DNA of 64,000 bases from a virus. Positions 14,021 through 57,167 of this stretch are shown here, one piece after another. The DNA is taken from the IMG/VR virus record IMGVR_UViG_3300046822_000286. The stretch is one strand, 5' to 3'. Position numbers and translations under genes: made by a program. Below the pieces are notes generated by a model. That model was not told the DNA's origin, did no database searches, and was given only the letters and a program-made list of their open reading frames with translations. Position 1 is the stretch's first letter; the number at the start of each line of letters is the position of its first letter.

Positions 14021-17000
14021 TCAATGGGTCACCGGCGCCGGCACCGGCGGTTGCCCGATAAATCCACGGATGCGGTCTGGGGTTGCTTTGAAACTATTGC
14101 GGTGGATCTGATATTCCAACGCGTCCAGTTCGTTGAGATACGCTTTCTTCTGTTCCGGATCGGTTGTCTTGTGCATCAGGCCTTCGACCACACGGATCTG
14201 GTATTGCGGCTTCTCCCGCATCCGCTGGATATCGCTCGGCTCGGATCCAGCCTGAGCCGAGAACGGGTGCGGGCCGGTCGGGTTCGGGCCCGGCTGCTCC
14301 AGCAGTGGTTCGATCATGGCGTCACGCTGGTCGAGCGAGATCTGGCCGGACTCCCACATCACGAAGGCGTCGGCAACCTTGTACATCTTCACGTCGTAGA
14401 GCGACTGATTCCAGTTCCGGTCGTTGTACCAGTCCTTCACGTCCGGACCGTTCGGATCGACCGATCGGATACCGAGTGCCCGCTTCCAGGCGAACGGCCC
14501 GTTCGAGGTCAGCCAGTTCCAGACCGGCGAGTCCGGGCTGTCCATCTGTTCGGCGCGCATCAACTGCATGTACGGTGAGATCAGTTTCTTTGCGACATAT
14601 TCTCGCTGTAGGCGCTTGCCGATATCCGTCTGGGGGTTGTCCTTGCTCGGATCGCCCCAGAGGTTCGGCTCGGATTTCGAGACGATATCCTGCCCGGTGA
14701 ACGAGTCCTTGTTCGCCTGCAGGTCGATGTACGTCTTCATCATCGGGTTGAGCAACTGGTAGAGCATGGCGGCCGGCGCCGTCGGTAGAGGACCGCCGTG
14801 CGGCTGATGCCCAAACATGTCTTCCAACTGCTGGCGCGCGGCATCCTCGAGCGTCGACTTCCCGTCGAGCACCCGGTCGAGGTTGGACTCGAGCGTGTGG
14901 AGACCGCCCCACTGCTTCACGATATCGGTCGGCGTCTCCATGGCGAGAATCACCGGTCTGCCGTTCTCGTCGTGGAATGGCGTGTTCAGGTGCATCATGT
15001 TCCGCTGCCAGTCGGCGAGCTTCTTCTCGATCTCCGGATACAGCAGGTGATTCCAGACGAAGGTGCTGATGAATAGACCGAGCACCATCTTCAGCAGAAA
15101 CTCGTCACCGGGGAAAAACTTCCCGGTGTGCGCCATACGCCGCATCCACGGCCCGATAATCTTCACGTGGAAGACCGAGAACGGGAACGTCACCGAGTAG
15201 AACAGGTCCATGCGGGGCGATACGGCACCGTAGTCGGGGTGGATGGACTCACGCGCCACCTTGCCCAACGCCAGCATCGACTTCGGATCCAGTCCGCCAA
15301 GGCTGATCCCTTTCACGACAACCGGTTGCCCGTTCGAGACGCGTTCCAAGTCGGCCATGAGTTTCGCAAACTTCGGGAACGACTGAACGATCTGGCCGGC
15401 GCGCTGCCATTCGCGGACGAGATCGCCGATCGGGTTGTCGCGCCAGTTCGGATTGCGGAATTCCCGGAAGGCCGGCGCGTTGACCGCTCGAGGCTGGCTT
15501 CCCGCGTAGAAGACGGAGTTCCATATCCTGAAGTCCTCGGCTAACTGCATCACCTGCTGGTACTGCGGCGGCGTCATCTTGCTTCTGAGCGCGTCGAGCG
15601 CCGCCGGCTGCTTCATCAGCGAGCCGAGATCCTCGGCGTAAGCGGCTATCTCGTTGCCGATCGTGATGTGCGTGTAGTACGTCAGCCCGGACGAGTTGAT
15701 CACCGTCCCCTTCCAGGCGCGGGTGGCCGCGCGGGCGAGTTCGGTGAACGGGTTCTCGAGATTGTTCTCCCGGAAGTGTTCCAGTTTGTCTGCGATCGGC
15801 GCCGGCAGCAGATAGATCTTGTTTTTGCCGCCGAGGGCGAGCGCTGGGCGCGTCAACTCTTCGCCGGTATCGGTCTCCAACTGTGGCGGCACCGGGGATG
15901 ATAGCGCCGCGTTCCGGAATGCGTTGACGTCGATGGACAGTTCGTCCATACCGGCCTTCACGGCATCCCAGATCACCTCGTCATTGATCGCACGCACCGG
16001 GTAGATCACGTTGCCTGGGTTGAACTGGAATCCCTTCAATACGATATTGTCCGGCAGTTCTCCGGTGTAGCCGGGGCCGCCGCGGCTGGCCGTCAGGATC
16101 TCGTCCTTCTGCTTCACTGTCAGCGTCGAGGTGTCGAGCACGTAAGACCGTCCGATCTTGGCCTGACCGGTCCTGTTGCCGACCAACTGTTGCCTCTGTG
16201 TATCGTCCAACCACTGGTTGAAATCGTGGCCATCGGCGGTACGGCTGATGAAATCGTCGATCATGTTATGCAGATAAACCCGCGTACCGTACTGCTCCAT
16301 CACTCGGATCCAGTCCGAATCGTGCGGCACGAGATGGCCCTTGCGGTTACGCAGGTAGAGCCGGCGCGGGTTCTGCATGCGCGTCGGCAGACCTGGTAGC
16401 CGGTCAATCGCATCACCGATGCCGCGGATGATCTGATTCGGGAAGTATTTGATCCGGCCTTCATCCGGGTCGACCTTGCCGCGTCTGGCGAGTTCGTTCC
16501 AGACGTCTTCCATCCAGCCGTGGAATCGATCGACGGCATCGCGCACGGCAGGAGTGGCAATCGAATTCAACCGGGCGATCTCTGCATCGATACGGTTCAG
16601 TTGGTCTTTGCCAGGCAGTGGGACACGGTCTTCGCCTTCACGGGCGGCCGTCTCGTACATGTCTTCCCAGAAGACGATCGAACGGAAGGCATCGTAGCCT
16701 GAGCGGTCCAGTCCCTTGACGACCTTCTCCATCTCCTTCTGCGTCTGGGCCGATGCGTCCCGCACAAGCTCCTGCGCGCGCCGCACCTCTTCGGAAAAGC
16801 CCGGCCAATCGCGGAGGTTCTCGTTGTAGCGGGCGACGGTCATGAAGCGGTAGACCTGCCCCGGGATGTCCTTGATCTCCTGCCAGACGTTACGCTGACC
16901 AGCTGGGACATCAATCAGTTTCCGCATCTCCGGATCTGGAGATGGGATCAGGTTCGGCTGAATCGATGGAGGAGGCCTCTTCTGCCAGAAGTTCACAGCG

Positions 17001-20000
17001 CCCTTCTGCCCGAGTTCCTTGCGCACGCCATCCACGATTGCCGGATCGGCCTGCAGTGCCTCCGCAGAGCGGTTCCAGTCGCCCAGTTTGGCTAGGCGTT
17101 TCGCTAGCAATACCCCGCTCCCGATCGATGGTGCCTTTGCGATTCGGTTTCCGGATACAGTGTGCAAGATCTCGAAGCCTTCGCCTTCCAGTTCAGGTGT
17201 AACGGCCAGTCCGGGCACGACCGGGTACACCTTCACCGTCTGGCCCTTTCCGTCTCTGGTAGGGATACTCAGCGTCGTTTCCCGTTGCTCTGGAGGTGCG
17301 GGCACCGGCGATGGTGAACCCATGGCGTTCGGTCCAGGCACTGGCGGCTGATCGGGCGATGGCGTTGGCTCGGTGGCCATCGCTTCATGTTCCGGCAGGA
17401 CGGGCATGCCCTTTTCCTTCATTACCGGAATCAGTTCTTTCAGTTTGGCCTTGTCCGCCTCGATCGCCTTGCGTGCTTCGTTTATAGCCTTCTCCGCCTT
17501 AGCGACCGTCTCGGCGCGGGTCTGCTCTTCCTGTCGTAGGTTCGCGATAGCGCTGCGGTGCTGTTCGATCAGGCGCGCTGTGTAGTCGGCGTTGCCGCGA
17601 CCGGCCTTAATGTCCGCCGTGTACTGTTCGATCTTCTGCTCGCGGCTGGCAATCTCATCCTGTACCTGCTTGAGCATCCGCCGGTCTTCGGCGACGACAT
17701 CGGTCTCAAGTTCGGCCAACTTCTCCGTGTTCGTCGTGATGCGCCGCGAGACCTGCCAATACTCGAGCGTCGAAGTATCGATCTGGGCCTCCGCTGAGAT
17801 GTCGGCGTAGTTGCGATGGTCCTGATCGAAGTCCATGACCTGATCGGCGTCACCGAACCAGAGGTTCTCGTTCCACTGGGCCTTGCGCGCCAGCATCGCG
17901 TACATCTTGGCGTCCGACGTTCCCTTGCCGACGTACCGATGGATACGTACCGATTCCTGCTTGTTGCCCTGGCGGACACCGCGGCCCTCGCGCTGCTCCA
18001 ATGCGGCCGGCGTCCACGGAACATCGTAGTGATGGATGTCGGTCGTGTTCGCCTGTAGGTTCATGCCCTCGCCCATCGATGACGTGGTCCCGATCAGGAA
18101 GCGCACCTTACCTTCGGCGTTCAATTGTTGCACTTTGAACTTCTTCGCCGCGCTGTTATTCGTTGCCTGATTGATGATCGCGATCTGGTCTTCCGGGATG
18201 CCGGCGGCCATGAGCGCTTCCTTGATCGACTTGTGGACATTGACCAATTCGTAGGTCTTGATCTTGCCAGGAGTCGCCTTGTCGCTGCTATCTTTCGTGT
18301 CGCTGGCTGCGGTCGACGACGCCTCGAGATCGTTAACGAGAGCCGCAGCATCGTCATCGACATCAACGCCGTGCAGTTCACCCTCGCCCTTCTTGGCGAG
18401 CCATGCCTGGATCAGTTTCTCTTCCTTGCTGCCTTCCTCCACGTGGGCGACGGCCCGGTAGATATCCATGAAGATCAATTGGGTGTTGTCACCCTGCTCG
18501 GAATCTTTGACCTGCCGGATGATCTCGTTCAGTTTCGAGCCTTCGCGCCCCAACGAGTTCGCATACTTCGTCGGGTTGTAGATGGCGAGATCGCCAGCCA
18601 GTTTACGCGCGAGTGTCAGGACCGACAGATGGTTCCATCCATGGGCCGCTGCGTCCGCGAAATGCTTCGTGACCCATTCATCCAACTCGGCTACCCGGGC
18701 GGCTTCATAGATCACCGCAGGCGACGGATTCAGCAGGTGCTCGGTGTACGCCGGCGTCGGACGATTCAGCGCAAAGGCACTGGTCGGACGCATATCGATG
18801 TAGCGGCGGAAGATCGACCGAAGATCGTTCAGGTTCTTGTAGCCAAGGAAGACCGTCCGGATCTTCGGCACTCCGGTCGTCGACGGTTCCTCGACCTGTC
18901 CGACGATGCCGAACTGCTCGACGAAGTCGCCCGCGTTGTGGATGCCGCGCTGCTTCCACTCGTCCGGCGCGATGTACTTCATCATCGAATAGATTTCGAT
19001 CGGGTTGTTCGGCGTCGGCGTCGCTGTCGCCATCCAGACGTTCTGTCCTGGACGGCCACCCTTGCGCTCGTGAATGTACCGAGTCTTGTAGCCCATGTCG
19101 GCCGCGCGATCGGAATACGATCCGGCGTGCAGCCAATCCGACATGTCCATGTACTGAACCGGAGCGTTCTTGTAGTTGTGGCCCTCGTCCACGATGATCG
19201 AATCGATTCCGGTATCTTCGAAGAAGATCGCATTCGTCTTCTTCATGTCCTGAATCTTGGCCAACTTTTCGGAGTATTTCCGGATCTGCTCCTGAATCAT
19301 GGACTCCGTCTTCTTGTCGTTCTTCTGGCTGACCGCATGGAGGCGCTCGCTCAGTTCCCGCAGGTCCTCCTGGATGTACTCCTCGGCGGAGCGTAGCGGG
19401 ATTTCCTTCATCCCTTCGTAGGTGCTCAGGACAAAGTCCGCATCGCTGGACGCTACTCGGTGCAGCGTCTTGTTGCGGTTCTTCGAGTTCATGCCACCGG
19501 TGTCGAGGATGAAGGCGTTCGGGAACATCTGCATGATCTCGTAGCCCCAGTTCTTGATCACCTTCGCCGGCACGACGTATATCGGCTTCCTGATCAGTCC
19601 ACGCTGCTTTGCCAGTTGGCCCAGCATGATCATCGCCATGGTCTTACCGCTACCGACACCCTGGCCGTTGATACCAGAGCGCATATGCAGCATTTGATTG
19701 GCGACTTCCCACTGGTGGTTACCGATCTTCAATGGCTTGCCCTTGAACGTGCCAGACATGCCGTTGACCTGAACTTCCTGAGAGGACGGAGACCGGTGCC
19801 GATAGGATCGGTACATCCGGTTGTACGTCGGTACGAGGTGCTCGGTGAGCTTAGGATTCTGCGAGAACCAGTCCTTGAAATGGTTCCCGACCTGATCGAT
19901 GATTCGCTGTTTGGCGAGATCGAAGATCTCTTTCCTCTTCGGATTGCCGCGGTAATCGGTTTCACCGGTATCAATCCACTTCGTGAGCCGCTTGTGGTTC

Positions 20001-23000
20001 AGGAACCCCTGAATATCCTCGGCCGTAAATTCGTGGTCGGCCATCTGGTTCGTTTTCGGATCGGTGATCACGTTCAGTTTGAGCCGGCCGGCTCCTCCGA
20101 TCTCCCACATGGTCCGGTTATTCTCTGGAACGTATTCCTGAATGCCGTTCATGCCGAACGATCGAAGCCACTGGATAACCGTTCCCTGGTCCATGTAGGA
20201 AGCGAACGGGTCGACCGGCAGGTTCTGGATCGTCGCCTGCTCTGGCAGCGCCGCGTGCAGCCCGCTGAGTTGATGCTTCAACTGCGATACGATCTGCGGG
20301 TCGGTGGCCTGCTGGAGCATCGCCTCGGTCTGATCGATCTTTGGCCAGATCGGGCCGTACATGTACTCATCGTCGATATTGATCGTCGGCTTGCCATCCG
20401 CGCTGAGGCTCTCGATGCTGAAGCCGGGCTTACCCACGAGGTCCTTGTCGATATCCGCCGGCTCCCCGTTGTACTTCGCTTCGATCTCCGGACGAGAGGC
20501 CGCGAATTCGCCGGTCTGCTCGTAAACAAACTTGGCGACATCAGCGAGATCTTTATCGTTGTACGCTCGGGCGACAACCGGTTGGCGGTAGATCGTGTTG
20601 CGATCAAAGATGTCGGCAAACTTTCCTTCGTCGTCCGTCAGACCGGCCAGCAGCCACCGCCGCGGATCTTCGAACGACAGCACCATCGACTCCGTTCCGC
20701 CGTTCAGGAATCTCCACAGGAACGGATCGTAGCCAGGAGGCTTACCTAACTTCTTGCCGGTCTTGTCGCCGTATTGTGAACGGTAGTTCGTGATCGCGGC
20801 CTTCAGTTGTGGCCGGATCTTATTCGCCGTCGCATCGTCGTTCTGCCGGAGCGCGCCGTACAGGCGGTCCGCCATGTCCATCATATTGACGGCTGCGAGC
20901 AATCGTCCCTGCGTTTTCTCTGGTAGCCCCTTCGGGAACGCGGGGTAAATATTCCCGTCCGAGTGGGCGAATGCCAGATCATTCGTCTTGGGCCTGACGA
21001 TCAGTGTGCCATGGCGTACACCTTCCGGCGCCTTGCCGACCGGCTTCTCGGTCTCTATCTCGGCGTTCGGCGCCGCGACCGTCTCTTCCGGCTTCCACTG
21101 GATATGATCTCCAAGGCTCGTTCCGATGAAGTCCTCGATCGGCTTTGTCGGACGGACGCCCATGCGCGTGACTTGTCGCACGCCATAGCCGGCCTCCGGC
21201 TGTCCCCACATCTGCCCCGGGTTCTCGATGTAGTATTTCGAGATGCGGGCTGGCGGCTGATCCGGCTTCGAGAACTTGTCGGTCGTTGTGGATTCGACCC
21301 AGTCCTTGTTGTAGCCGAACGGACGAGTGAACCCCATCTTAGCGAGGTCCTCGACGGTGGCAATCTTGCCTTCCTTTAGCGCCTTGAATGCTTCGATCTC
21401 TTCGGGCGTACGCTTCCGCAGCAGGATGGCGTCGACAGAACCGCCGTACTGGGTGTTCTTTTTAAACTCACCAGCTGGTGTGCGGTACGCGCCGAGGAAC
21501 TCCGCCTTCTCGTTGATCAGTTTCCTGATCTCGTCTCCGGCTTTGTCCATCGTGCCGGTCGACGTCAGGAAGAATACGAGGCCGTTCGGTTTCGCCACGT
21601 CCAATCCCTTCACAAAGAAGAAATCGTGCAGCGTGTCGATGTCCTTGTATTCCTGCGCATCCTTCGCGTAGCGGAGTTCGCCTCGGCTGGCCGAGAACGG
21701 TACGTTCGACATGACGATGTCGAACTTCTGCCGGCTATTGAAATTCTCGAACGGTTTGTTATGGACGGTCGCGTCCGGGTACAGCAACTGCGTGATCTTC
21801 GCCGCAATCGGATCGATCTCGACGGCGGTCATTCGCACGCCAGCAGGCGCGAAGCCGAGATAGTTACCGACGCCGGCCGCTGGTTCGAGCATGCTCGCGC
21901 CTTCGAGCGGATAGCCCATGGCAGCAAGTTTGTCCCACTGCCATTGAACGACTTTGTAGGAAGTGTAATGCTGGAAGAGGACGCCTTCATCGGCGGTTCC
22001 CAGCCCACCCTGGCCAGTGTACTGGCGAAGGATGTCTTGCTCTTCTGGCGTGAGCGGGTCGCCTTGGTTCTTCGCACCGGCGATCGCAATCGCCTTGGCG
22101 TTGATCTCGCGCCGCTGCTGTGGCGTCAGATCGATCGGCTCTTTCCCGACTAGGGTAAAACGTTCTCCGGTGGCTGGCCGAGGCTGCTGTTGTTGAGGTC
22201 TTCTCGGAGCTCCTGGCTTGGAAGGCCTCCCTGGAGATACTCCTTCGCCAGATCCGACACCAGGTTCTCCCGGCCCACCTTCTCCACGTGGTCCTTCGGC
22301 AGGCGGTCCACCTCCTGCTCCGCCAGTCGGTTCGCCCGCTGGACCCTCTCCATTTCCGACTCCGGTTGTTGGCTTAGCATTGACATCGGATTCTCCTCGC
22401 GGCGCTGGTACCGGCGGCGGTCCGCGATCGGGCGGTCCGGCGGTCGGCTCCTGTGCCGGTTTCTCTGGTGGCGGCGGAGCGGATACCGGCTTCTTCCCGG
22501 TCGCGGCCGCCACGTCGTCGATTAAAGCATATGCTGTCGGCAGGTAAGGTGCCACCCAGTCGCCAGCCGCACTCATGGCGTGCGACCACGCTGGCCAGTC
22601 GGGCGATGTCTGATAGAGGTAGGCGCCGAGCTTTAGGAGTTTGGCCCGGGTACCGGGGTCGAGTTGGGTGATGTCGGCATCACTTCGCTCAGGTCCGGCG
22701 CCGCCGGCCACTTCGGGTTGCGCACCTGGACCGCCGCTCGGTAGACCTTCGCCGCGTCCACGCCCTCCGACTGCGCCTTCTCCAGCAACATCCTCAGCAC
22801 CGGCTTGCTCATCTCCTCCGGTTGCAACGCTGGAGCTAATCTTGCCAAATATGTTTTCTCCTGCCCACTGAGGCCGGAGGTTGGTGAGGTCGTCATAGAG
22901 TCCACTATATGCCTCGCCGCCGTTGTGTTCCAGTACGGCCTGCAGTTCGGCCTGCACGTGCGCCGAGTCCAGTAGCGTGAGGTCGATGTTTCTGGAGAGC

Positions 23001-26000
23001 TCGCCTGCGAACTTTTCATCGTGATCACGCACGGCCTGATGGCTCAGTTCATGGACGAGCGTCGAGACAATGCGAGCCGCTACCATGGCCGGCCCTTCCG
23101 TGGGGGCGATGTGCCGGAACTGGATGGCGGAGAGGACCTCGTCCATGATCGTGTACGGGTTCACGAGGATCAGGTTGTGATCCCAATCCAGCATCTTGCC
23201 GTGGATATTGATACCGAGATATTTGGTGCCGAGGCCGATGCCGATAGCGGCTGGATCGAGTTCGCCGTCCATTCGCCCCCGGTTGATCGCGCCAAGCAGC
23301 GTGTCCATGGACGACATGATCTGGTCCGATAGCCGCTGGACGTACGGGCGCTTCGACAGCGCTTCGACCTGGTCCGGCGGAAGATTGCCAGAGGTGTCAA
23401 CGATCGGGAGCGAATTCGGTCCAGGGATGACAGGGGCATTCAGTATCCGGTCGACGTAGGCGGCTTTCTCGCCCTCGAGCGCGCGGAGGACGAAGTTATC
23501 ACTCAGCCATTCCCGTATCTTTTCCGTCAGGTCGTGATCGCGGATGCGTTCACGGTCCGGCGCGAATGGATATCCAGCCTCCTCGGGGCCGGCCTTCGGA
23601 TGGATGTTGACGACGAGCGGGCCTGGCAGCATGGTTCCGGAGAGATGCTTCGGCACGCTGATGCTGTTGTTGAACTGGTACAGACCGTTATTCAAGATGG
23701 AATAGGTAACCGCTCCGTAGTCGCCAACCTTCTCCTTCCCGTCGCCCAGATGAATATCGGCAGACGATCCAGGCGTCTCGACCTGTGCCAGTTTCTGCAG
23801 CCGCACGGAACTCGGTTCGATGAACAGTCCGTTAAGTTTGAAACTGACCCGGTACGGCAGTAGCGATGTCGACTTCATCATGTCGCCCGCGAACCGGCCC
23901 ATGTAGAACTGCCCCATGGTGACGTCCGGGCTGAGTTTGATCCGGATATTGGTCCCAGTGATTTCCTCGTCAGCAGGATGCGTCTCGACGTCCAGGCCTA
24001 GTTCTGGATCGACCCAATCTGCCCCCTTACCGTAGAGTGTCGTGACGAAGCGCTTGCCGGTCTTCGGATCTTCGGCGACCGTATGGATATCGATCTCGTC
24101 GGCGTTGGCAAAAATGGCCACCTTGGCGATCCCGAACCCGCCGGAGGAACCCTCGGCCTTCTTGCTGCCGCCGATGTCCATCAGTTCTTTCTGCGCGACT
24201 TCCGGCGTCATACCGGAGCCGTTGTCGGCCATGTAGATGGTCCGCCTGTTAGTATCGACCTCGATCGTTACGCCGCGCGATTCCGGATTGTCCAGTCCGC
24301 GCAGGGAGTCGAGGGCGTTCTGCAGCATCTCGCGCACGGCGACGACGCCGAGATCGCCGTTATAGAGATTGCCGCCGAGCGTCTTCACGATGCGCGGATC
24401 CAGACCGGCAGCGGCCTTGCCCTCTCCGGTCTTCATCTCGCTGATCATATTCTGCCGATCGGCGAGCCACTGCTTCACGCGGGCAACTTCATTAGGCTTC
24501 GGTGGTTTCAGACGTTCGCGGATGGAGTTTGCCCGATCGTACGCGTCCTTCGCGGCGGCGAGAAGTTCGTCGTCGGATCCGAGATTCAGTTCGCGCGGTC
24601 CAGTGTGGCCGGTTCCAAAGCGCGCCTTGTCGAGGATGTCCTTGATGCGCTCAACGACTTCGTCTTTTGGATAGAGGCCGCGCACCAGTTCGTCGTATTG
24701 CCGGGCGAGATCTTCTTCGGTCCCGGCCTCAGCATCTTCCGGGTATAAGACGTTCTCCACCTCGGACTGTGACATCTCGGAATCGATACGATCAATCAAG
24801 TCGTCAAGTTCGCCCTCGAGTTTATCGATGCCGCCAGTCTTGCCAGACTCATATCGTTGATCGATTTCGTCGGCAAGGTTCTCGGCCCGGTCGACCATCC
24901 GCTGGAGTTCGTCGGGCATGGCGTGACCCTTGAGCGCGAGGTTACTCGAACGCTTCATCTCGCTGACGAAGTCGCTAATCTTCTTCGGATTGATCGCGCT
25001 CTCCGGCCCCAGCGCGAGATCCTTCATCAAATCGTCGATCGCGCCGGTCTTCGGCGTCTCGCTGAGCGCCTCCTTCACGATCTCCGCGTCGCTCTTCGCC
25101 TTGCCTGTCGGCTTCGGTTTCGGCGCAGGCTTTGGTGCCGGGGCCGGCTTCGGACCTGGCACAGGAGCCGGACCGGCAGCAGGAGGTGCGGCTGGCGGTA
25201 GACCGCCCGCCATCGTCTCGTACTCCTTCTGCATCTGGTCGGCGACACCCTGCGCCGACGCCTGATCGGTAAACGGAGTACGGGGAAGCGGCGCGCCATT
25301 CGGGCGCACGACTTCAAACTTGCCGTCTGGTGTTTGGCGGACCGAATAGCTACCGCGCGGCGCCGCGACCGGCGGTCCAGCGACGGGCGGGAGGGGCTTC
25401 GGCGCTTCCGGCGCCGAGACCGGCTTCGTCTCCGGCATCTTTCCGCCCATCGACTGGAACTGATCGTCGGTCAACTCCGGATAACCGAACGCCTTCATCG
25501 TCTTGAGATAGTTCGGATGCCGCTCGTGGACGGTACCGTCCGCAGTGACAACCTTGCCCTGATAGGTTCCGGCCACGTCCTTGCCGGCAATCACGAACTG
25601 CTTCTTCGGCTTGAGCGCAGGCGGCTGTGGCGCTTCTGCCGGTGGAGGCGGAACAGCGCCGGCTGGCACGTTCGCCTGACGCTCATGGGCGTGCCGGATC
25701 AGTTGGATGCTGGCCTGACCGTTCGGTGGCTTCTTGTCGTCGAGCACCCAGCCGTCTTTGTCTTTGTACAAATACTCGCGGCCACCCGTATCGGCGTACG
25801 CGCGGAGGAGTTTCGACGGGTCGATCCGGTAGTCCTCCGGCATCCCACCCTCAAGCCACGCGTGGATCCACTGGAAGACGCGGGAGTGGCTCAGGATGCC
25901 GACGCTCTCCGTCGGATTCTTCTCGAACTCGTCCATGATCCGCTGGACCGTTGGGCCGAGTTGATCTTCCCACTGATGGAAGCTCTGTCCGTCCCTGGTG

Positions 26001-28492
26001 GAGATCGGACCGCGCCCGCTCGGTGCCGCATCCGGCATATCCTGCGCCAGCGCGTTGATCTTCGGCAGGACATCCTTCATCGGCTGTCCCTCGAGGCCTC
26101 CAAGCGCCCACGCCTGTAATCCGCGCTCTGGCACGACCTGGATGTCCGGGTGAGCGCCTTGGACCACCTGCGCAGTTTCTACCGCCCTTTGCGCGTCGCT
26201 CGTGTAGATCTTCTTCGGCAGGTCGGTCGCCGCGGCGAGTTTGGCCGCGTCCTTCTTGCCCTCTTCGCTCAGGCCGACGCTCGAGGAGCCGTGGTTGACG
26301 TCGCCATCCGGCGTCTCCATGCCCTTCGGCAGGTTCTTGTTCTCGGGGATCGCGTCCGGATGGATCTCCTGACGGTTCGGTCCCTGCACTGTCTCGACGT
26401 CGGCGGCGGGGATGACGGTGCTGGTCTTACCACCAGAGATTGTTGCGGCAGCTGGAGGCTCGCCCGGCTTCGGAGCTCCGGGCGGGAACGGTACTTCTTC
26501 GCCCGGACCCGGGAGTGGCGGCTGCGCACCCGCTTCCGCTGGCGCTCCTGGCTTTGCCGTGAATCCAGGGCCTTCGACGGTTCCCGGCTCCTCGAACGGC
26601 GCCGGCCCTCCGGTCTCACCTGCTGGACGGCCAGGTCCACCGGCTGGCGCTTCGACCTGCGCTTGCCCGGGGACGGCGAGCGGCTCCTTCGATGCACCCT
26701 TGACTCTCGCGGCCTTGTCCTTGATCGACTTCCGGGAGACGTTCTCGACGCCACCCTGCTCGGCGACCGCCTGATCGACGAGGTCGCCAGCCATCTTCTT
26801 CGCGCTCTCCGGATCGAACGTGTCCGGGCGCCGGCCGTACAGAACTTCGGATACCTCAGCCTTGAGATCGTTAATTGCCTTGATCTTTGCCGCCGTACCG
26901 ATGCCGCCTGCCGTCTCTGCGATCGTATGGAAGATTGCGGCCGCTCCCATGGTCGTGGCGATGTGCTCAAGACGCGTCTCGTGGAATCCGACCTGCGGAT
27001 TCTTCTCCCCTGTGTCTTCTTTCGGTTCGACCGCTCCGACGATAAACGCCGTACCGAGCGTGTTCTCGAGCCGCGACAGGATATTCGCCGCAATCCCGGT
27101 CTCAGCGGTTCCATACAGCGGAGCTAGCAGCCGGGAGATCCTTGCCCACGGTGCGCTCGCACCGATCAGGCTGGATACGACATTTGTCGCCGCCTGCCAC
27201 TTATCCGCCGGCGCCGCCATGCCCAACTGTTCCAGTTTCTCTTCGGTGCCCGGGATGACCTTGAAATTCTTGTCGAGGATTGGGATGTGGATCGTGCCGG
27301 TCGCGGCCTGCGCCACGCCAAGGGTGGCGCCGGATAGCATGCTCTCCCCGCCGCGCACCGTGCGCCGGTACAGATCCTGCGCGAGGGCCGTCCACGGCTT
27401 CGGCTCCTCCGGCTTCATTCCGCCGGTTGATGCAATCGCGCCGCGCTCAAGGCCGGCAACCCGCGCCTGCAGTGCCTCCGGCGTCTCGTTCTCCGACGTG
27501 TCGCGGAATGGCGACACCTGCCGGTTCCTGTCGTGATCCTCGTCGATCGGCAACCCGAGGCGCTGCGCCTGACTTTCGTGGAGGTTCTGCGCGAACGCTT
27601 CGGCGTCTGGGACGTTCGTGAATTTGCCGAGGTGCTCTCCGGTTTTGTGGTACCGGTCGATCGCTTCCTTATCGCTAAGCAGTTTGCCGTCAACGACCGT
27701 CGGAACGACGACCTCTTTGCCGCCCTCGTCGAACGACATCGAACGCGTGGTCGAGATCGAGCCGTCCGGATTCTTCAAGATCGGACGGTTGTACAGATTC
27801 TTGATCGTCCCCGGCTCAGCCTGACCGGTCGGCGTCAGCGATTCGCCGCGCTGGAGTTTCAGCAGATCGGTCTGCGTTAGTTCAGGATAGCCAGAATCGT
27901 GATAGATGCGCAGGTTGTTCGGATTCTGTGTCGTCTGGGAACCGTCGCTCATGACTAGCGCATTACCGTGAGTGCCGGCAATCGAAAGCGGCTTTGGCGG
28001 AGCGGCCGGGGCCGGGAGCCGAAGTTCCGGATTCGTTAGGTCGGTCGGGGTGGCCGGCGTGTTCGGTGTGACCGTCTGCCGGTTCGTGCCGGTGACCGGA
28101 GGAGCAGGAACGGGGACCAGCGGGGTCGCCTTCGCCAGGTTTGGTGCCTGCAGTTCCTTGCCGAGTTGCAGGGCAGCGGCCGGCGCGCCCTTGATGATGT
28201 CCCATGTGGAAGGCTCTTTCGGAGTCAGCGGCGTCGGTCGGACCTTCGGAGCCTCGGTGTCCCAGTAGGCATCCCACAACCGGCTCTTGGATTCAGACGG
28301 CAACTGCAGGCCGCGTACGTACTGCTCGAGTTCGGCGTGGCCTAGCGTCTGATCGAACTTCGACCGGATGTCGGCGGCCTGATCCGGCGGTAAGGCCTTG
28401 ATGATCGAATCGATTTGCTGTGACCGACCGAGCGGCGCGGCTGGCGTGGTTGGCGCCTGTACCGGCGGCGGAGTCGTCAGTGTTTCAGCCAT
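14021..28492 (-). CDS. giant multi-domain (polyvalent) virion/ejection protein, 4,823 aa, with DarB-like methyltransferase-helicase core
   Basis: 14,472-nt ORF without a stop. GGAG lies 6 nt upstream of ATG 28492. Motifs were verified against the DNA: MLQNALDS/DNGSGM/GGFGIAK (GHKL), HELSH, EPAAGVGN + NVPF (MTase), GSGKT + DEGH + QREGRGVRQGN (helicase). Pro/Ala/Gly-rich linkers separate the modules. Confidence 0.9.
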   Translation of the reverse strand: MAETLTTPPPVQAPTTPAAPLGRSQQIDSIIKALPPDQAADIRSKFDQTLGHAELEQYVRGLQLPSESKSRLWDAYWDTEAPKVRPTPLTPKEPSTWDIIKGAPAAALQLGKELQAPNLAKATPLVPVPAPPVTGTNRQTVTPNTPATPTDLTNPELRLPAPAAPPKPLSIAGTHGNALVMSDGSQTTQNPNNLRIYHDSGYPELTQTDLLKLQRGESLTPTGQAEPGTIKNLYNRPILKNPDGSISTTRSMSFDEGGKEVVVPTVVDGKLLSDKEAIDRYHKTGEHLGKFTNVPDAEAFAQNLHESQAQRLGLPIDEDHDRNRQVSPFRDTSENETPEALQARVAGLERGAIASTGGMKPEEPKPWTALAQDLYRRTVRGGESMLSGATLGVAQAATGTIHIPILDKNFKVIPGTEEKLEQLGMAAPADKWQAATNVVSSLIGASAPWARISRLLAPLYGTAETGIAANILSRLENTLGTAFIVGAVEPKEDTGEKNPQVGFHETRLEHIATTMGAAAIFHTIAETAGGIGTAAKIKAINDLKAEVSEVLYGRRPDTFDPESAKKMAGDLVDQAVAEQGGVENVSRKSIKDKAARVKGASKEPLAVPGQAQVEAPAGGPGRPAGETGGPAPFEEPGTVEGPGFTAKPGAPAEAGAQPPLPGPGEEVPFPPGAPKPGEPPAAATISGGKTSTVIPAADVETVQGPNRQEIHPDAIPENKNLPKGMETPDGDVNHGSSSVGLSEEGKKDAAKLAAATDLPKKIYTSDAQRAVETAQVVQGAHPDIQVVPERGLQAWALGGLEGQPMKDVLPKINALAQDMPDAAPSGRGPISTRDGQSFHQWEDQLGPTVQRIMDEFEKNPTESVGILSHSRVFQWIHAWLEGGMPEDYRIDPSKLLRAYADTGGREYLYKDKDGWVLDDKKPPNGQASIQLIRHAHERQANVPAGAVPPPPAEAPQPPALKPKKQFVIAGKDVAGTYQGKVVTADGTVHERHPNYLKTMKAFGYPELTDDQFQSMGGKMPETKPVSAPEAPKPLPPVAGPPVAAPRGSYSVRQTPDGKFEVVRPNGAPLPRTPFTDQASAQGVADQMQKEYETMAGGLPPAAPPAAGPAPVPGPKPAPAPKPAPKPKPTGKAKSDAEIVKEALSETPKTGAIDDLMKDLALGPESAINPKKISDFVSEMKRSSNLALKGHAMPDELQRMVDRAENLADEIDQRYESGKTGGIDKLEGELDDLIDRIDSEMSQSEVENVLYPEDAEAGTEEDLARQYDELVRGLYPKDEVVERIKDILDKARFGTGHTGPRELNLGSDDELLAAAKDAYDRANSIRERLKPPKPNEVARVKQWLADRQNMISEMKTGEGKAAAGLDPRIVKTLGGNLYNGDLGVVAVREMLQNALDSLRGLDNPESRGVTIEVDTNRRTIYMADNGSGMTPEVAQKELMDIGGSKKAEGSSGGFGIAKVAIFANADEIDIHTVAEDPKTGKRFVTTLYGKGADWVDPELGLDVETHPADEEITGTNIRIKLSPDVTMGQFYMGRFAGDMMKSTSLLPYRVSFKLNGLFIEPSSVRLQKLAQVETPGSSADIHLGDGKEKVGDYGAVTYSILNNGLYQFNNSISVPKHLSGTMLPGPLVVNIHPKAGPEEAGYPFAPDRERIRDHDLTEKIREWLSDNFVLRALEGEKAAYVDRILNAPVIPGPNSLPIVDTSGNLPPDQVEALSKRPYVQRLSDQIMSSMDTLLGAINRGRMDGELDPAAIGIGLGTKYLGINIHGKMLDWDHNLILVNPYTIMDEVLSAIQFRHIAPTEGPAMVAARIVSTLVHELSHQAVRDHDEKFAGELSRNIDLTLLDSAHVQAELQAVLEHNGGEAYSGLYDDLTNLRPQWAGENIFGKISSSVATGGDEQAGAEDVAGEGAVGGRGRGEGLPSGGPGAQPEVAGGAGPERSDADITQLDPGTRAKLLKLGAYLYQTSPDWPAWSHAMSAAGDWVAPYLPTAYALIDDVAAATGKKPVSAPPPPEKPAQEPTAGPPDRGPPPVPAPRGESDVNAKPTTGVGNGEGPAGEPTGGAGGGPPAEGPRGEGGPGEPGVGSGEGVSPGRPSKPGAPRRPQQQQPRPATGERFTLVGKEPIDLTPQQRREINAKAIAIAGAKNQGDPLTPEEQDILRQYTGQGGLGTADEGVLFQHYTSYKVVQWQWDKLAAMGYPLEGASMLEPAAGVGNYLGFAPAGVRMTAVEIDPIAAKITQLLYPDATVHNKPFENFNSRQKFDIVMSNVPFSASRGELRYAKDAQEYKDIDTLHDFFFVKGLDVAKPNGLVFFLTSTGTMDKAGDEIRKLINEKAEFLGAYRTPAGEFKKNTQYGGSVDAILLRKRTPEEIEAFKALKEGKIATVEDLAKMGFTRPFGYNKDWVESTTTDKFSKPDQPPARISKYYIENPGQMWGQPEAGYGVRQVTRMGVRPTKPIEDFIGTSLGDHIQWKPEETVAAPNAEIETEKPVGKAPEGVRHGTLIVRPKTNDLAFAHSDGNIYPAFPKGLPEKTQGRLLAAVNMMDMADRLYGALRQNDDATANKIRPQLKAAITNYRSQYGDKTGKKLGKPPGYDPFLWRFLNGGTESMVLSFEDPRRWLLAGLTDDEGKFADIFDRNTIYRQPVVARAYNDKDLADVAKFVYEQTGEFAASRPEIEAKYNGEPADIDKDLVGKPGFSIESLSADGKPTINIDDEYMYGPIWPKIDQTEAMLQQATDPQIVSQLKHQLSGLHAALPEQATIQNLPVDPFASYMDQGTVIQWLRSFGMNGIQEYVPENNRTMWEIGGAGRLKLNVITDPKTNQMADHEFTAEDIQGFLNHKRLTKWIDTGETDYRGNPKRKEIFDLAKQRIIDQVGNHFKDWFSQNPKLTEHLVPTYNRMYRSYRHRSPSSQEVQVNGMSGTFKGKPLKIGNHQWEVANQMLHMRSGINGQGVGSGKTMAMIMLGQLAKQRGLIRKPIYVVPAKVIKNWGYEIMQMFPNAFILDTGGMNSKNRNKTLHRVASSDADFVLSTYEGMKEIPLRSAEEYIQEDLRELSERLHAVSQKNDKKTESMIQEQIRKYSEKLAKIQDMKKTNAIFFEDTGIDSIIVDEGHNYKNAPVQYMDMSDWLHAGSYSDRAADMGYKTRYIHERKGGRPGQNVWMATATPTPNNPIEIYSMMKYIAPDEWKQRGIHNAGDFVEQFGIVGQVEEPSTTGVPKIRTVFLGYKNLNDLRSIFRRYIDMRPTSAFALNRPTPAYTEHLLNPSPAVIYEAARVAELDEWVTKHFADAAAHGWNHLSVLTLARKLAGDLAIYNPTKYANSLGREGSKLNEIIRQVKDSEQGDNTQLIFMDIYRAVAHVEEGSKEEKLIQAWLAKKGEGELHGVDVDDDAAALVNDLEASSTAASDTKDSSDKATPGKIKTYELVNVHKSIKEALMAAGIPEDQIAIINQATNNSAAKKFKVQQLNAEGKVRFLIGTTSSMGEGMNLQANTTDIHHYDVPWTPAALEQREGRGVRQGNKQESVRIHRYVGKGTSDAKMYAMLARKAQWNENLWFGDADQVMDFDQDHRNYADISAEAQIDTSTLEYWQVSRRITTNTEKLAELETDVVAEDRRMLKQVQDEIASREQKIEQYTADIKAGRGNADYTARLIEQHRSAIANLRQEEQTRAETVAKAEKAINEARKAIEADKAKLKELIPVMKEKGMPVLPEHEAMATEPTPSPDQPPVPGPNAMGSPSPVPAPPEQRETTLSIPTRDGKGQTVKVYPVVPGLAVTPELEGEGFEILHTVSGNRIAKAPSIGSGVLLAKRLAKLGDWNRSAEALQADPAIVDGVRKELGQKGAVNFWQKRPPPSIQPNLIPSPDPEMRKLIDVPAGQRNVWQEIKDIPGQVYRFMTVARYNENLRDWPGFSEEVRRAQELVRDASAQTQKEMEKVVKGLDRSGYDAFRSIVFWEDMYETAAREGEDRVPLPGKDQLNRIDAEIARLNSIATPAVRDAVDRFHGWMEDVWNELARRGKVDPDEGRIKYFPNQIIRGIGDAIDRLPGLPTRMQNPRRLYLRNRKGHLVPHDSDWIRVMEQYGTRVYLHNMIDDFISRTADGHDFNQWLDDTQRQQLVGNRTGQAKIGRSYVLDTSTLTVKQKDEILTASRGGPGYTGELPDNIVLKGFQFNPGNVIYPVRAINDEVIWDAVKAGMDELSIDVNAFRNAALSSPVPPQLETDTGEELTRPALALGGKNKIYLLPAPIADKLEHFRENNLENPFTELARAATRAWKGTVINSSGLTYYTHITIGNEIAAYAEDLGSLMKQPAALDALRSKMTPPQYQQVMQLAEDFRIWNSVFYAGSQPRAVNAPAFREFRNPNWRDNPIGDLVREWQRAGQIVQSFPKFAKLMADLERVSNGQPVVVKGISLGGLDPKSMLALGKVARESIHPDYGAVSPRMDLFYSVTFPFSVFHVKIIGPWMRRMAHTGKFFPGDEFLLKMVLGLFISTFVWNHLLYPEIEKKLADWQRNMMHLNTPFHDENGRPVILAMETPTDIVKQWGGLHTLESNLDRVLDGKSTLEDAARQQLEDMFGHQPHGGPLPTAPAAMLYQLLNPMMKTYIDLQANKDSFTGQDIVSKSEPNLWGDPSKDNPQTDIGKRLQREYVAKKLISPYMQLMRAEQMDSPDSPVWNWLTSNGPFAWKRALGIRSVDPNGPDVKDWYNDRNWNQSLYDVKMYKVADAFVMWESGQISLDQRDAMIEPLLEQPGPNPTGPHPFSAQAGSEPSDIQRMREKPQYQIRVVEGLMHKTTDPEQKKAYLNELDALEYQIHRNSFKATPDRIRGFIGQPPVPAPVTH
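15035..15202 (-). other. two hydrophobic helices in the C-terminal region of the giant ORF (aa 4431-4486)
   Basis: FYSVTFPFSVFHVKIIGPWM and LLKMVLGLFISTFVWNHLLYP. These are possible membrane-insertion segments, as in podovirus ejection proteins. Confidence 0.35.
17888..19720 (-). other. domain of giant ORF (aa ~2925-3535): SF2 helicase (SNF2/DEAD-like)
   Basis: Walker A GQGVGSGKT (19640..19654), DEGH box IIVDEGHNYKN, ATATP, C-terminal lobe GEGMNLQ and QREGRGVRQGN. Confidence 0.8.
21398..22045 (-). other. domain of giant ORF (aa ~2150-2365): N6-adenine DNA methyltransferase
   Basis: Motif I MLEPAAGVGNY, AVEIDP, and motif IV FDIVMSNVPF (NVPF at 21695..21706). Confidence 0.75.
22883..23275 (-). 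other. domain of giant ORF (aa ~1740-1870): zincin-like metallopeptidase (HExxH)
   Basis: TLVHELSHQAVRDHDEKFAGEL. HELSH is encoded at 23039..23053 (checked on the DNA). Confidence 0.5.
23918..24379 (-). other. domain of giant ORF (aa ~1372-1525): GHKL (MORC/Hsp90/MutL-type) ATPase
   Basis: N-box REMLQNALDS, G1 box MADNGSGM and G2 box SSGGFGIAKVA, in canonical order and spacing. Confidence 0.65.
25838..26311 (-). other. domain of giant ORF (aa ~728-885): histidine-phosphatase (phosphoglycerate-mutase-like) fold, divergent
   Basis: DVNHGSSSVGLSEEGKKDAAKLA...IYTSDAQRAVETAQVV...DGQSF...GILSHSRVFQ parallels RHG...SSP-x-RA-x-QTA...GES...VSHG, but RHG is NHG here. Confidence 0.45.
27563..27811 (-). 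other. domain of giant ORF (aa ~228-310): conserved NRP-x3-NPDGS-x-ST...VPTV...HLG module of unknown function
   Basis: TIKNLYNRPILKNPDGSISTTRSMSFDEGGKEVVVPTVVDGKLLSDKEAIDRYHKTGEHLGKF. I recall similar modules in large phage/plasmid polyvalent proteins but cannot name the family with confidence. Confidence 0.3.
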
Positions 28493-28501
28493 GGCGCTCC
28501 G

Positions 28502-30427
28502 TTATCTGGCCGGCGGTTTTGGTGGTGCGTTGAAGTCGGGGCGTGTCTGGTTCCCGACGTACTTTTTCAGTTCGGCCTTGTCCTCATCCGGCAAGTTCTT
28601 CTGATATTGCAGGATGTCTTCAAGTACGTTCATCGGCACCCGGTTCGGATTCTGGCGGTTCTCCTCGATCAGTTTGTAGACATCCGGAACCTGTACCGGT
28701 TCGCCGGGCTGCATGAAGGCCGGATTGTTGTACCGCGAATCAGTTTTCGCGATTCCAGGCGTGTTGACCATCGGGCGCACCGTCTTCTCCGGCGGGGTCC
28801 ACGCCGCTGGCTTGACCTTGGCACCGGTCGATTGCAACTTGCCGGTGGCCCGGTTGTAGGCCATGACCTCTTCTTCCTGAGTCGCCGGATTCATACCAGG
28901 GAACACGCTGATGCCGGCCTGCTGCGGATGGAATCCGGTATAGAGGCTCGCCATCGAGCGGGCCTTGTCCGCCTGCCACTTCAGTGCGGCTTTAGGATCA
29001 GTTGGCTTCGGGGTAGCCTTGTCGTAACTATCGGCCCAGTCCGCCAACTGCCGGTTCTCCGGAGTGAGCTTCGCCCGGTCCGCCGCCTGAATGTTAGCGG
29101 CGTGTGCCGACAGGACGTTCTGGGCGTCCGTGACGGCGTGGAACTGCTGCTGTACTTTCGGATCGGTTGAGGTCGCGTACTTCTCCGGATTGGAAACCAT
29201 GTCCGGGTTCGCGGCCACCGCGCGTGAGGCCTCGTTGACGTCGTGCGTCTCAGATTCTTCGGGAGACATCTTGCCCTCCCGGTCCATCTTGAGCGTGGCC
29301 TTGTAGCCGTTCAGCCAGTTACGTTCCGACGGCGTGATCACGGCGTCCGGCTTCGAATTGATCCGGATGGCCTTGTCGCGCTGGTGCTGCGCCTTGTCGT
29401 AGTTTGGTCTGGCATCTTCGAATGCCGTGCTGCGCCACTGATCCAGCGTTCCCTTTTCGCCCTGTTGGCCGCTGCCGGGAACGAGGCCTTCGCGCTCGTA
29501 CGACCGGATTCCTTCCGACACGTGCTTGTATTCGCCAGCCAGCGGCGAGGAGAGCATATCGGCCTCGGTCTCGATGGCGTTGCCGGGGTTCGCGTTGTTG
29601 TACGACTCGATGTGTTGATCCAGCGCGTTTAGCGCCGTGTGCGCATGCGAATAAGCATACCGATGAGCCATGGCTGCCTCGGCCGTCGGGGAGTGCGCGA
29701 ACTGCGGCTTGGTTGCCTGACCAGTCTTCGGATCCACAAATCCGTACTGCGGATCTTTGTACCAGTTCTCTTTGCCGAATACCTGCGCCTCGTACGGAGT
29801 CGGCAGGTTCGTGTCGACTCCGAAGCCGACAGCGGGCGCTGCCGCCGGGGCCGGCGTGCCGTTCGGACCGAGCACATGTCCGGGCGCTGGCACAGGACCT
29901 AGGCCAGGACCTTGCGGAAGACCGGGGCCACCCGCAAACGCTGGAGACTCTGCGGACGGCGCCGGAGCCGCCATGCCGGCAGACGGCGATGGCGTCATCG
30001 ATGCACCTGGGGCGCCGAATGTGAAACTGTCCGGACTGTTCGGGGACAACGACGGAGGGGCCGGCGGAGCCGTCGGACCGACCCCTGGAGTGCCGGGCGC
30101 GACCTGCTGGGATTGTGCCGTCTTCTTGCCGGCGAACATGCTCTTGAAGAAGTCCATGATGCCGCCAGAGCCGGCATCGGTAGGGGAGCCGGTAGCCGTC
30201 TTTGGAGGCTTCGGCAGTTTGCCGAGCGCGTCGTGGAGTTGGCTAAGGTACTGCTCCTGAAGGGCGGGATTGTCTTTGAACCGATCGGCACCCTCGGACA
30301 GCGCCTTGATATCCTCGAGGTTCTGCTGATGCGCCTGAATGGCTTTCTGTGCCGTGAGCAAGCGCCCCTGCAAGAATCCCTTGCTGAACTCCGATGCGAT
30401 ACTTCCGAGTGCGTCAATCGCTGGCAT
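28502..30427 (-). CDS. internal virion/ejection protein candidate (641 aa), Pro/Ala-rich
   Basis: Large ORF immediately upstream of the giant gene. Has a low-complexity PGxGP/APAP segment. The function is inferred from position only. Confidence 0.7.
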   Translation of the reverse strand: MPAIDALGSIASEFSKGFLQGRLLTAQKAIQAHQQNLEDIKALSEGADRFKDNPALQEQYLSQLHDALGKLPKPPKTATGSPTDAGSGGIMDFFKSMFAGKKTAQSQQVAPGTPGVGPTAPPAPPSLSPNSPDSFTFGAPGASMTPSPSAGMAAPAPSAESPAFAGGPGLPQGPGLGPVPAPGHVLGPNGTPAPAAAPAVGFGVDTNLPTPYEAQVFGKENWYKDPQYGFVDPKTGQATKPQFAHSPTAEAAMAHRYAYSHAHTALNALDQHIESYNNANPGNAIETEADMLSSPLAGEYKHVSEGIRSYEREGLVPGSGQQGEKGTLDQWRSTAFEDARPNYDKAQHQRDKAIRINSKPDAVITPSERNWLNGYKATLKMDREGKMSPEESETHDVNEASRAVAANPDMVSNPEKYATSTDPKVQQQFHAVTDAQNVLSAHAANIQAADRAKLTPENRQLADWADSYDKATPKPTDPKAALKWQADKARSMASLYTGFHPQQAGISVFPGMNPATQEEEVMAYNRATGKLQSTGAKVKPAAWTPPEKTVRPMVNTPGIAKTDSRYNNPAFMQPGEPVQVPDVYKLIEENRQNPNRVPMNVLEDILQYQKNLPDEDKAELKKYVGNQTRPDFNAPPKPPAR

Positions 30428-48944: not shown

Positions 48945-48946
48945 TC

Positions 48947-48984: not shown

Positions 48985-49020
48985 TGAACGAGTTGTGCTA
49001 CACATGCGCAGAGCACCGTT

Positions 49021-57133: not shown

Positions 57134-57167
57134 TAGAGTGACTGCCAACTCCGCGTCATGCCGTCCC

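Follow-up and report, generated by a model that had tools for sequence, protein, structure and literature searches.

The window analysed here is a 64,000-nucleotide (nt) stretch of viral DNA (IMG/VR record IMGVR_UViG_3300046822_000286), and its most prominent feature is a giant open reading frame (ORF) for a phage-type polyvalent protein of 4,823 amino acids (aa), located at 14021..28492 on the minus strand, as are all the genes of the window and all the window features described below. This ORF is one genuine gene, and its product is probably a DarB-like polyvalent protein, encoded by the last gene of an internal-virion/ejection cassette of a podovirus-like phage. Judging from its sequence and from analogy with cultured phages, it is plausible that the protein is packaged and injected as a counter-defence payload. 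A giant DarB-like polyvalent protein in the ejection slot of a podophage is a known kind of protein; new here are its C-terminal anchor family, with a series of members ranging from minimal to giant, the cargo with GHKL/Hsp90-like and phosphatase folds, and the backbone of the phage.

Integrity and domains of the giant protein

The giant ORF starts with an ATG, contains no internal stops and is preceded by a GGAG Shine-Dalgarno motif (28497..28500), read from the sequence 4 nt 5' of the ATG, while a gap of 9 nt separates it from the stop codon of an upstream 641-aa gene. At the base composition of the window, a stop-free run of 4,823 codons would have a probability of ~1e-73 of arising by chance. 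The extreme length of the ORF, together with its low-complexity Pro/Ala/Gly linkers, which could hide insertion or deletion errors, would be compatible with an artefact in which several genes had been fused by sequencing error or in a chimeric contig. However, four Logan contigs encode the identical 4,823-aa protein, one of them (64,673 bp) being essentially the window, and a contig from a separate JGI assembly, which ends inside the giant gene, encodes an identical 1,890-aa C-terminal part. Moreover, sister phages encode co-linear relatives of 4,179, 4,252 and 4,262 aa, whose 40-60% identity spans the linkers, and the G+C content at third codon positions (GC3) was uniform in one frame, with values of 0.72-0.82 across all folded modules, equal to those of the portal, capsid and tail genes, and dips restricted to the linkers. 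Given the identical protein on several contigs and the co-linear relatives, an artefact was dismissed as extremely improbable, and the uninterrupted 4,823-codon ORF and the Shine-Dalgarno motif of the initial annotation were thus both borne out, as was continuity in independent assemblies.

For domain assignment, Pfam calls were judged against the curated cut-offs, motifs were read in the sequence, and PHROGs and NCBIfam were also run. The initial annotation had listed five catalytic modules, four of which passed the Pfam cut-offs: a histidine-phosphatase (branch 1) module at aa 718-940 (25673..26341; His_Phos_1, aa 735-888, 54.9 bits vs a cut-off of 21.7), an Hsp90/TRAP1-like GHKL ATPase module at aa 1370-1690 (23423..24385; HATPase_c_3, aa 1384-1494, 29.6 vs 25), an N6-adenine methyltransferase at aa 2105-2400 (21293..22180; Eco57I methylase, aa 2244-2328, 27.8 vs 25.3, with Eco57I/N6_Mtase spanning aa 2244-2344), and an SNF2/SF2 helicase which, together with a DarB-type linker region, occupies aa 2401-3560 (17813..21292; SNF2-rel_dom, aa 2928-3117, 46.7 vs 24.9, and Helicase_C, aa 3441-3509, 30.5 vs 23.5). 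The remaining one, a zincin-like metallopeptidase module at aa 1691-1890 (22823..23422) with a HELSH-x5-HDE motif at aa 1814-1826, was the weakest of the five, its only Pfam match being a sub-threshold one to WLM (E = 0.036). The Pro/Ala/Gly linkers reported between modules were readily recovered, at aa 592-701, 1078-1144, 1887-1944 and 1992-2105.

The fusion of a gamma-class N6-adenine methyltransferase upstream of an SF2/SNF2 ATPase, which was taken as the mark of a DarB-like protein, is complete in the giant. Methyltransferase motifs I (EPAAGVGNY) and IV (NVPF), the Walker A motif (GSGKT), the DEGH box and motif VI (QREGRGVR) are all intact, and PHROG 11801 'DNA methyltransferase' (E = 3e-191) and PHROG 10089 'DarB-like antirestriction' (E = 2e-146) matched at aa ~2620-3678. 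A charged region that follows at aa 3561-3700 (17393..17812), still within these DarB-like PHROG matches, is probably a coiled-coil. The methyltransferase is preceded by an LPD36-like GQGG motif, and no Pfam LPD model matched the giant at E<=0.1. Neither a lytic transglycosylase nor an acyltransferase match was found in the giant with Pfam, PHROG or NCBIfam.

The GHKL ATPase and the zincin appear linked as one unit in the giant and in the related proteins P0003, P0151 and P0153. The GHKL motifs are intact (N-box REMLQNALD, G1 DNGSGM, G2 GGFGIA) and the NCBIfam HSP90-family model scores on this module with an E of 2e-9. An AlphaFold model of aa 1340-1940, of modest overall confidence but with a predicted local distance difference test (pLDDT) score of 70-87 in both folded halves, matched TRAP1, Hsp90 and HtpG in Foldseek (E ~1e-11); the search was dominated by Hsp90 matches and the zincin half was not resolved. 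This predicted fold match and the NCBIfam score together indicated that the GHKL module is Hsp90-like. The zincin motif is kept as HExxHx5H[DN]E in P0003, P0151, P0153 and P0006 (20-43% identity), and the topology predicted for the module in the AlphaFold model, a helix, three strands, the HExxH helix and a second helix, fits the zincin core described in PMC5512222. The nearest stand-alone relative of the unit is P0151 (39% identity), an 825-aa protein (10001-12478 in L013 and 5226-7703 in L014) that joins an Acb1/2H phosphoesterase domain, of an anti-CBASS family, to GHKL and HExxHx5HNE; it is encoded in a bacterial mobile element with integrase and transposase genes, adjoining a gene for a 1,830-aa RadC-domain protein. 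This fusion indicated an anti-defence association for the GHKL-zincin unit, and it hints at a direct anti-defence role instead of a chaperone-protease one. A precedent for phage GHKL proteins in conflict systems is T4 rIIA (PMC7824862).

The histidine-phosphatase module matched the fold of PhoE (1h2e; E = 2e-5). Its sequence suggests a circular permutation: the His_Phos_1 match begins at profile position 19, and the RHG of strand beta1, with which such folds usually begin, appears here as RHA at the C-terminal end. The phosphatase domain of the sister giant P0002 has its canonical 'IYFVRHGETAWN' at the C-terminal end, where it aligns with 'IQLIRHAHE' of the giant, and the second His of that domain is replaced by Asn.

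No domain was assigned to aa 1-215, 311-700, 940-1370, 2400-2900 and 3700-3840 of the giant. The first 215 residues (27848..28492) are common to the sister giants P0002, P0005, P0006 and P0008; a 95-aa module follows (aa 216-310; 27563..27847), and then a conserved region at aa 311-600 (26693..27562), common to P0002 and P0005 and with no family match. A 'GYPELT' module of ~70 aa is present twice in the giant, at aa ~160-215 (27848-28012), within the N-terminal region, and at aa 945-1015 (25448..25660), and once or twice in the sister proteins P0002-P0006.

The putative ejection cassette and the C-terminal anchor family

Upstream of the giant, the cassette comprises a weakly GNAT-like gene of 183 aa (31007..31558; PHROG E = 9e-4), which is its first gene, a 187-aa gene in a gp14-sized position (30434..30997), and the 641-aa gene (28502..30427), in a gp15-sized position and with a homologue in the sister phage L005. 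The 187-aa protein is rich in Ala, Gly and Gln and ends in a C-terminal glycine zipper, GSGLGGIAGGLGTFFGLGGMGGG, as expected of a small membrane-inserting ejection protein. Similar cassettes close with much shorter proteins elsewhere. In the ~45-kb contigs of L017/L018, an adaptor-like gene and a 1,272-aa gene are followed, further downstream, by a GNAT gene of 122 aa and by genes of 213, 526 and 1,192 aa, the last encoding a protein with the C-terminal module (C-module) that was found on 11 contigs; opposite-strand replication genes come after it. The L016 cassette reads 183 / 539 / 64 / 1,339 aa, followed by holin and amidase genes. The 1,181-aa virion protein of the window and the 1,272-aa protein are homologous across loci (E = 2e-27), and so are, more weakly, the 187- and 213-aa proteins (E = 1e-3, or 3e-4 via a sister phage). 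The existence of minimal members of ~1,200 aa in the same cassette indicates that the giant represents an enlarged form of such proteins. We infer that the ancestral form was a ~1,200-aa protein, mostly C-module, which in the lineage of the giant received ~3,800 aa of cargo between its C-terminal anchor and a conserved N-terminal region.

Cargo varies among close relatives. We defined the sister lineage as the phages sharing the downstream genes KTSC, DUF6496, Gp3-like and PDDEXK, and found that these syntenic phages keep a constant N- and C-terminal scaffold with exchangeable cargo. Whereas the giant carries the phosphatase, GHKL-zincin and methyltransferase-helicase, P0002 (4,179 aa) is devoid of GHKL-zincin, P0003, encoded by a complete gene (2,574 aa), possesses GHKL-zincin without methyltransferase-helicase, and P0006 (4,262 aa) combines a zincin with a Strawberry-notch-type helicase. 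Cargo identified in 19 larger C-module members included DdrB-ParB (4 members), ResIII helicases (4), Sno helicase (2), SNF2/Eco57I and LPD38, DdrB-ParB being a phage-specific polyvalent-protein domain (PMC5512222). Among the best 150 C-module representatives, methyltransferase-helicase occurred in ~10, the phosphatase in one and GHKL in one.

The 95-aa module at aa 216-310 is common to internal-virion and DNA-transfer proteins of epsilon15-like phages and Zobellviridae. It was found, with ~50% identity, in gp17 of the epsilon15-like phage SPN1S, whose gene directly follows two 'internal virion protein' genes, in the C-terminus of the Klyazma 'IVP-C-like' protein and in proteins annotated as 'DNA transfer protein'. 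It is also present in proteins of 578-1,134 aa that close the structural modules of metagenomic phages, one example being a series of 134/231/478/1006 aa followed by a lysozyme.

The C-terminal 'anchor' module (aa 3840-4823; 14024..16975) is mostly alpha-helical. The two hydrophobic helices that the initial annotation had placed in the C-terminal region were confirmed as segments at aa 4428-4448 and 4466-4484, within a hydrophobic helical hairpin (aa 4428-4484; 15041..15211) that holds an invariant FPF motif. A transmembrane-anchored C-module was rejected, as only one 19-mer reaches a Kyte-Doolittle value of 1.5 and the segment lies within a soluble-looking helical bundle. An exhaustive HMMER search with aa 3701-4823 retrieved representatives of 251 clusters (E below 1e-30 for 59), and the match was nearly always at the C-terminus of the carriers, which ranged from 1,200 to 4,262 aa. 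Other searches returned little. No match was obtained in a tblastn search of phages with the C-terminal 1,123 aa, with the family in an IMG/VR scan, with the minimal member P0012 against phage and plasmid collections, or with the C-module profile against PDB sequences, and a word-indexed search with the C-terminal region recovered only itself. The core alignment found a single locus, in a Firmicutes metagenome-assembled genome, among 185,579 species-representative genomes, in which a single-protein query had no match. PHROGs and Pfam revealed nothing in seven minimal members beyond a sub-threshold LPD38 match in one.

An AlphaFold model of the C-module built from 45 sequences (pLDDT 73.7, predicted template modelling score 0.70) was mostly helical and had no PDB fold match at E<=0.001. 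The predicted fold matched the C-terminal pieces of uncultured-phage proteins annotated as 'Large polyvalent protein associated domain-containing', with E values from 1e-25 to 1e-7, and, in the same range, large proteins of marine and other podophages; in BFVD, a Flavobacterium podophage protein annotated as 'structural protein' was matched weakly. Profile-profile comparison by hhalign gave probabilities of at most 0.4% against each of the PLxRFG tails (0.1%), T7 gp16 (0.3%, a weak test, with a single-sequence target and a protein that is only partly solved) and the Klyazma IVP-D-like protein. The C-module profile had no hmmsearch match to Tunturi gp12/17/32, SPN1S gp17-19 or the BcepIL02, LASTA and POI1126 proteins. 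By sequence, the C-module (~980 aa) is a separate, uncharacterised family, new here.

Known relatives, proposed function and alternatives

The initial annotation had recognised neither this domain combination nor its fusion at a gp16-like position, and the novelty thereby claimed was overstated, as giants with a DarB dyad had already been published, namely Bcep22 gp75, JC1 gp69, the Parlo homologue and Pavtok gp27. The Casjens laboratory counts such giants among the very large putative ejection proteins (PMC8402733); Erwinia Pavtok gp27 (5,007 aa) is described there as 'the longest known phage protein', and such proteins, it is noted, must cross the conduit at least partly unfolded. JC1 gp69 (4,515 aa, 22% of the genome) was identified in CsCl-purified virions by 51 unique peptides (PMC9144972), and the Serratia Parlo homologue (3,764 aa) has helicase, methyltransferase, transglycosylase and acyltransferase domains (PMC6606913). 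Database records show the same layout: in BcepIL02, gp65 (GNAT) is followed by virion structural proteins, gp70 (4,667 aa) and then lysis genes; in Klebsiella LASTA the series runs from gp05 (GNAT) through gp01 (4,433 aa); and in Ochrobactrum POI1126 from gp24 (GNAT) through gp30 (4,841 aa), followed by an endolysin. POI1126 gp30 and Pavtok gp27 both exceed the giant described here, which is therefore not the largest of its kind.

Bcep22-like phages, Lastavirus, Namazuvirus and Erwinia podophages encode DarB-like giants of 4,400-5,007 aa in the same GNAT/structural/giant/lysis order as in the window, and mass spectrometry has confirmed two of these giants in virions. As in these short-tailed phages of ~60 kb, the giant takes up ~22% of the genome, closes the virion module as its last large gene and bears an N6-adenine methyltransferase-SNF2 helicase dyad. 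The differences are nevertheless considerable. Only the methyltransferase-helicase core could be aligned with the cultured giants, at ~25% identity (BLASTP), and their N-terminal lytic transglycosylase and acyltransferase contrast with the histidine phosphatase and GHKL-zincin found here. The C-termini of the LASTA and POI1126 giants belong to the PLxRFG 'tail-700' family NF032893 (E = 1e-203 and 1e-279, respectively), whereas this model had no match at E<=1 on the C-terminus of the giant or on minimal C-module members; the BcepIL02 giant also lacks NF032893 and has its own specific tail. The backbone of the cultured phages is likewise unrelated to that of the phage described here, the nearest portal of which comes from Tunturiibacter phages.

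P1 DarB, with 2,255 aa, is much smaller than the giant. Both share the methyltransferase-SF2 helicase dyad, reflected in the PHROG 10089 and 11801 matches of the giant; in contrast, P1 is a myovirus and its DarB has neither the other cargo nor the C-module. P1 DarB is a component of the virion head that protects incoming DNA in cis (PMC5512222), and its packaging depends on DarA, Hdf and DdrA/B (PMC9144972); none of these partners turned up in the window, where no search aimed at them was made. More broadly, polyvalent proteins, as described by Iyer, Burroughs, Anand, de Souza and Aravind in 2017, are injected with the DNA, the zincin serving as their hub and probably as the protease that processes them, and DarB typifies the module made up of LPD36, methyltransferase and SF2 helicase (PMC5512222). 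Like them, the giant unites disparate enzymatic domains in one polypeptide, is encoded among late genes (on one strand and in one operon with portal, major capsid protein, tailspike and lysis-like genes) and includes the methyltransferase-helicase module, the GxGU motif of LPD36 being seen here as GQGG only, and relatives of its C-module carry DdrB-ParB and a weak LPD38 match. The main text of that survey contains no mention of GHKL/Hsp90 ATPases, phosphatases or the phosphoglycerate-mutase fold (PMC5512222).

Ejection proteins of other short-tailed phages were also compared. The virion RNA polymerase of N4 (gp50, Schitoviridae), of ~3,500 aa, is the third ejection protein of the phage and leaves the virion with two smaller partners, and ejection operons have been accepted as analogous 'despite lacking detectable sequence similarity' (PMC13434306). 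The cargo of gp50 is an RNA polymerase, as opposed to the methyltransferase-helicase and other modules of the giant, and the only match of the C-module to a virion RNA polymerase in BFVD was not significant (E = 2.5). In T7, gp13-gp16 measure 138/196/747/1318 aa vs 122-183/187-213/526-641/1192 aa in the minimal cassettes. As in T7, the last protein of the series is the largest and has an N-terminal enzymatic add-on. The SLT domain of T7 gp16 is absent from the giant according to Pfam. The label gp16-like for the C-terminal region holds as regards position (last and largest) but not as regards sequence or fold, in which no similarity to T7 gp16 was detected.

Several lines of evidence support packaging and injection of the giant: the cultured giants share its arrangement and that of JC1 was found in virions, aa 216-310 are common to internal-virion and DNA-transfer proteins, the minimal C-module members end cassettes of T7 gp13-16 size, and sister phages exchange cargo while the scaffold stays the same. 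We infer from them the packaging, ejection, processing and targets of the protein as follows. The capsid would contain a few copies alongside the 187-aa and 641-aa partners; on infection, the protein would cross the tail channel, largely unfolded, with or ahead of the DNA, the N- and C-terminal parts helping to build or gate an envelope-spanning conduit. Once in the cytoplasm, the methyltransferase-SNF2 dyad would track along the incoming DNA and protect it from restriction, as P1 DarB does, and the zincin, coupled to the Hsp90-like ATPase, would cut and/or refold the polypeptide into working units; both the DarB dyad mechanism and the idea of the zincin as a processing protease come from PMC5512222. 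The divergent histidine-phosphatase-like module might bind or hydrolyse a phosphorylated host target or signal.

A number of observations weigh against this proposal. The phage is uncultured and known here from assembled sequences. The upstream genes of 183, 187 and 641 aa have no family assignment, and their equivalence to gp13, gp14 and gp15 consists of order, size and the glycine zipper only. The initial annotation had described a series, with the giant as its last and largest member, lying between tail and lysis genes; the 183/187/641/4,823 order was confirmed, but the GNAT match is weak and four additional genes (106, 267, 244 and 748 aa) separate the giant from the putative lysis genes. 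In the P0002 sister phage, those four genes are absent and a GH108 endolysin directly follows the giant, while the endolysin call in the window is itself weak. None of the experimentally characterised ejection proteins compared showed detectable similarity to the C-module. Furthermore, 45 of its members (21-45% identity) share invariant N, E and H residues, in the stretch 'WNNTGER..E...LP.W.R..PH' (aa ~4380-4600; ~14690-15350), and near-invariant K, R, R and D, polar residues that would fit the active or binding site of an enzyme as well as a scaffold. Finally, the catalytic set of the histidine phosphatase is incomplete: R769 and H869 are kept in the alignment with PhoE, Ala occupies the position of the acid Glu, and RHA and NHG take the place of RHG, with 'NHG' on the N-terminal side. 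Because of these changes the module may be non-catalytic or altered in function.

Two other explanations accept the gene and its domains and differ on where the protein would act. The giant could stay bound to the virion, as a structural tail, plug or inner-core protein whose enzymes do their work prior to ejection or in the course of it; they might methylate or remodel encapsidated DNA, for instance, or act on the envelope. The large, helical C-module with its hydrophobic hairpin, which matches no known cytoplasmic enzyme, the tail and tailspike genes in the neighbourhood and the weak BFVD match to a podophage structural protein would all be in keeping with such a role. The cargo, however, needs S-adenosylmethionine and ATP, which are absent from capsids and periplasm. 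In addition, cargo swapping is typical of effectors and not of load-bearing structural parts, and the archetype of the dyad, P1 DarB, acts on incoming DNA in the cell (PMC5512222), all of which makes a purely virion-bound protein unlikely.

Alternatively, the giant might not be packaged at all and be a late-expressed multi-enzyme that works in the cytoplasm, modifying progeny DNA or countering defences during replication, being encoded at the end of the late operon incidentally. The many other modification genes at 46-57 kb (methyltransferases, glycosyltransferases, aminotransferase and DUF5131) would suit this explanation, and virion association of the giant is deduced here from comparison. 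Yet the module shared with annotated internal-virion and DNA-transfer proteins, the virion protein confirmed by mass spectrometry in the same slot of cultured phages, and the combination of a constant C-module, variable cargo and, in the same cassette, minimal members with no recognisable enzyme domain, which points to a delivery or structural scaffold, leave it little probability. Packaging and injection of a DarB-like polyvalent protein is therefore the explanation that we favour. A bolder and rather doubtful extension of it is that the C-module represents an unrecognised, widespread class of podophage ejection or inner-membrane proteins, equivalent in function to T7 gp16 and the N4 gp50 termini, though of unrelated sequence, and serving as a general delivery vehicle, with GHKL-zincin refolding or cutting the cargo after ejection; if so, the vehicle would be loaded with anything from no recognisable enzyme cargo (in members of 1.2 thousand aa) to 3.8 thousand aa of effectors.

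Phage backbone and biological meaning

The transcription order of the window is portal (62248-63954), major capsid protein (58166-59152), a transferase block, structural and tail genes with tailspikes, the 183/187/641/4,823-aa cassette, the 106/267/244/748-aa genes, a weakly endolysin-like gene and, lastly, recombination genes. A gene at 49021-50073 was considered as a capsid gene and rejected, since it encodes DUF5131 and the major capsid protein is the one given above. It lies in a block of ~11 kb between capsid and tail genes (46308-57196), with two glycosyltransferases, an aminotransferase, at least two methyltransferases and DUF5131, which looks like a DNA- or virion-modification cluster in an unusual place. 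Three paralogous genes encode pectate-lyase/beta-helix tailspike-like proteins (31880-33571, 38314-40008 and 40012-41727; pairwise E from 1e-12 to 1e-31), whose sequences suggest several receptor-binding or depolymerase specificities. The 748-aa protein (9906-12152), encoded between the giant and the lysis-like genes, has a C-terminal fibronectin type III domain.

Megablast of the giant gene against phage records revealed no DNA-level relative, and no tRNA genes were found in the window. Among cultured phages, the portal is closest (23% identity) to those of the Tunturiibacter (Acidobacteriota) phages Tunturi_1/2, in which no giant gene was found and which also encode a 1,307-aa homologue of the 1,181-aa virion protein (34753-38298). 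This proximity of both proteins hints at a soil acidobacterial host. The sister phage L005 (JGI 3300047444; 109,586 bp, with a 4,179-aa giant) is represented by contigs of ~109 kb, as against ~64.7 kb here, which may reflect a larger genome, a concatemer or a prophage within host DNA. Samples SRR26074820 and JGI 3300046663/3300047444 are sources of this phage or of a sister. By its sequence, the phage is a novel podovirus-like one with a deeply novel backbone.

Nothing in the giant is categorically new and its functions stay predictions drawn from sequence comparison. In some short-tailed phages, giant injected proteins of this kind bring a ready counter-defence kit into the cell before gene expression, and the locus described here adds a second anchor family, unrelated in sequence to that of cultured phages. 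New anti-defence or processing activities may reside in the Hsp90-like ATPase-zincin unit and in the permuted histidine phosphatase. In addition, the proteins that close this cassette form a natural series of sizes between 1,192 and 4,823 aa, in which sister phages have gained, lost and exchanged cargo. Such a series could show what part of these proteins mediates packaging and translocation, how a polypeptide of >500 kDa crosses the tail channel, and whether the scaffold could carry foreign cargo.

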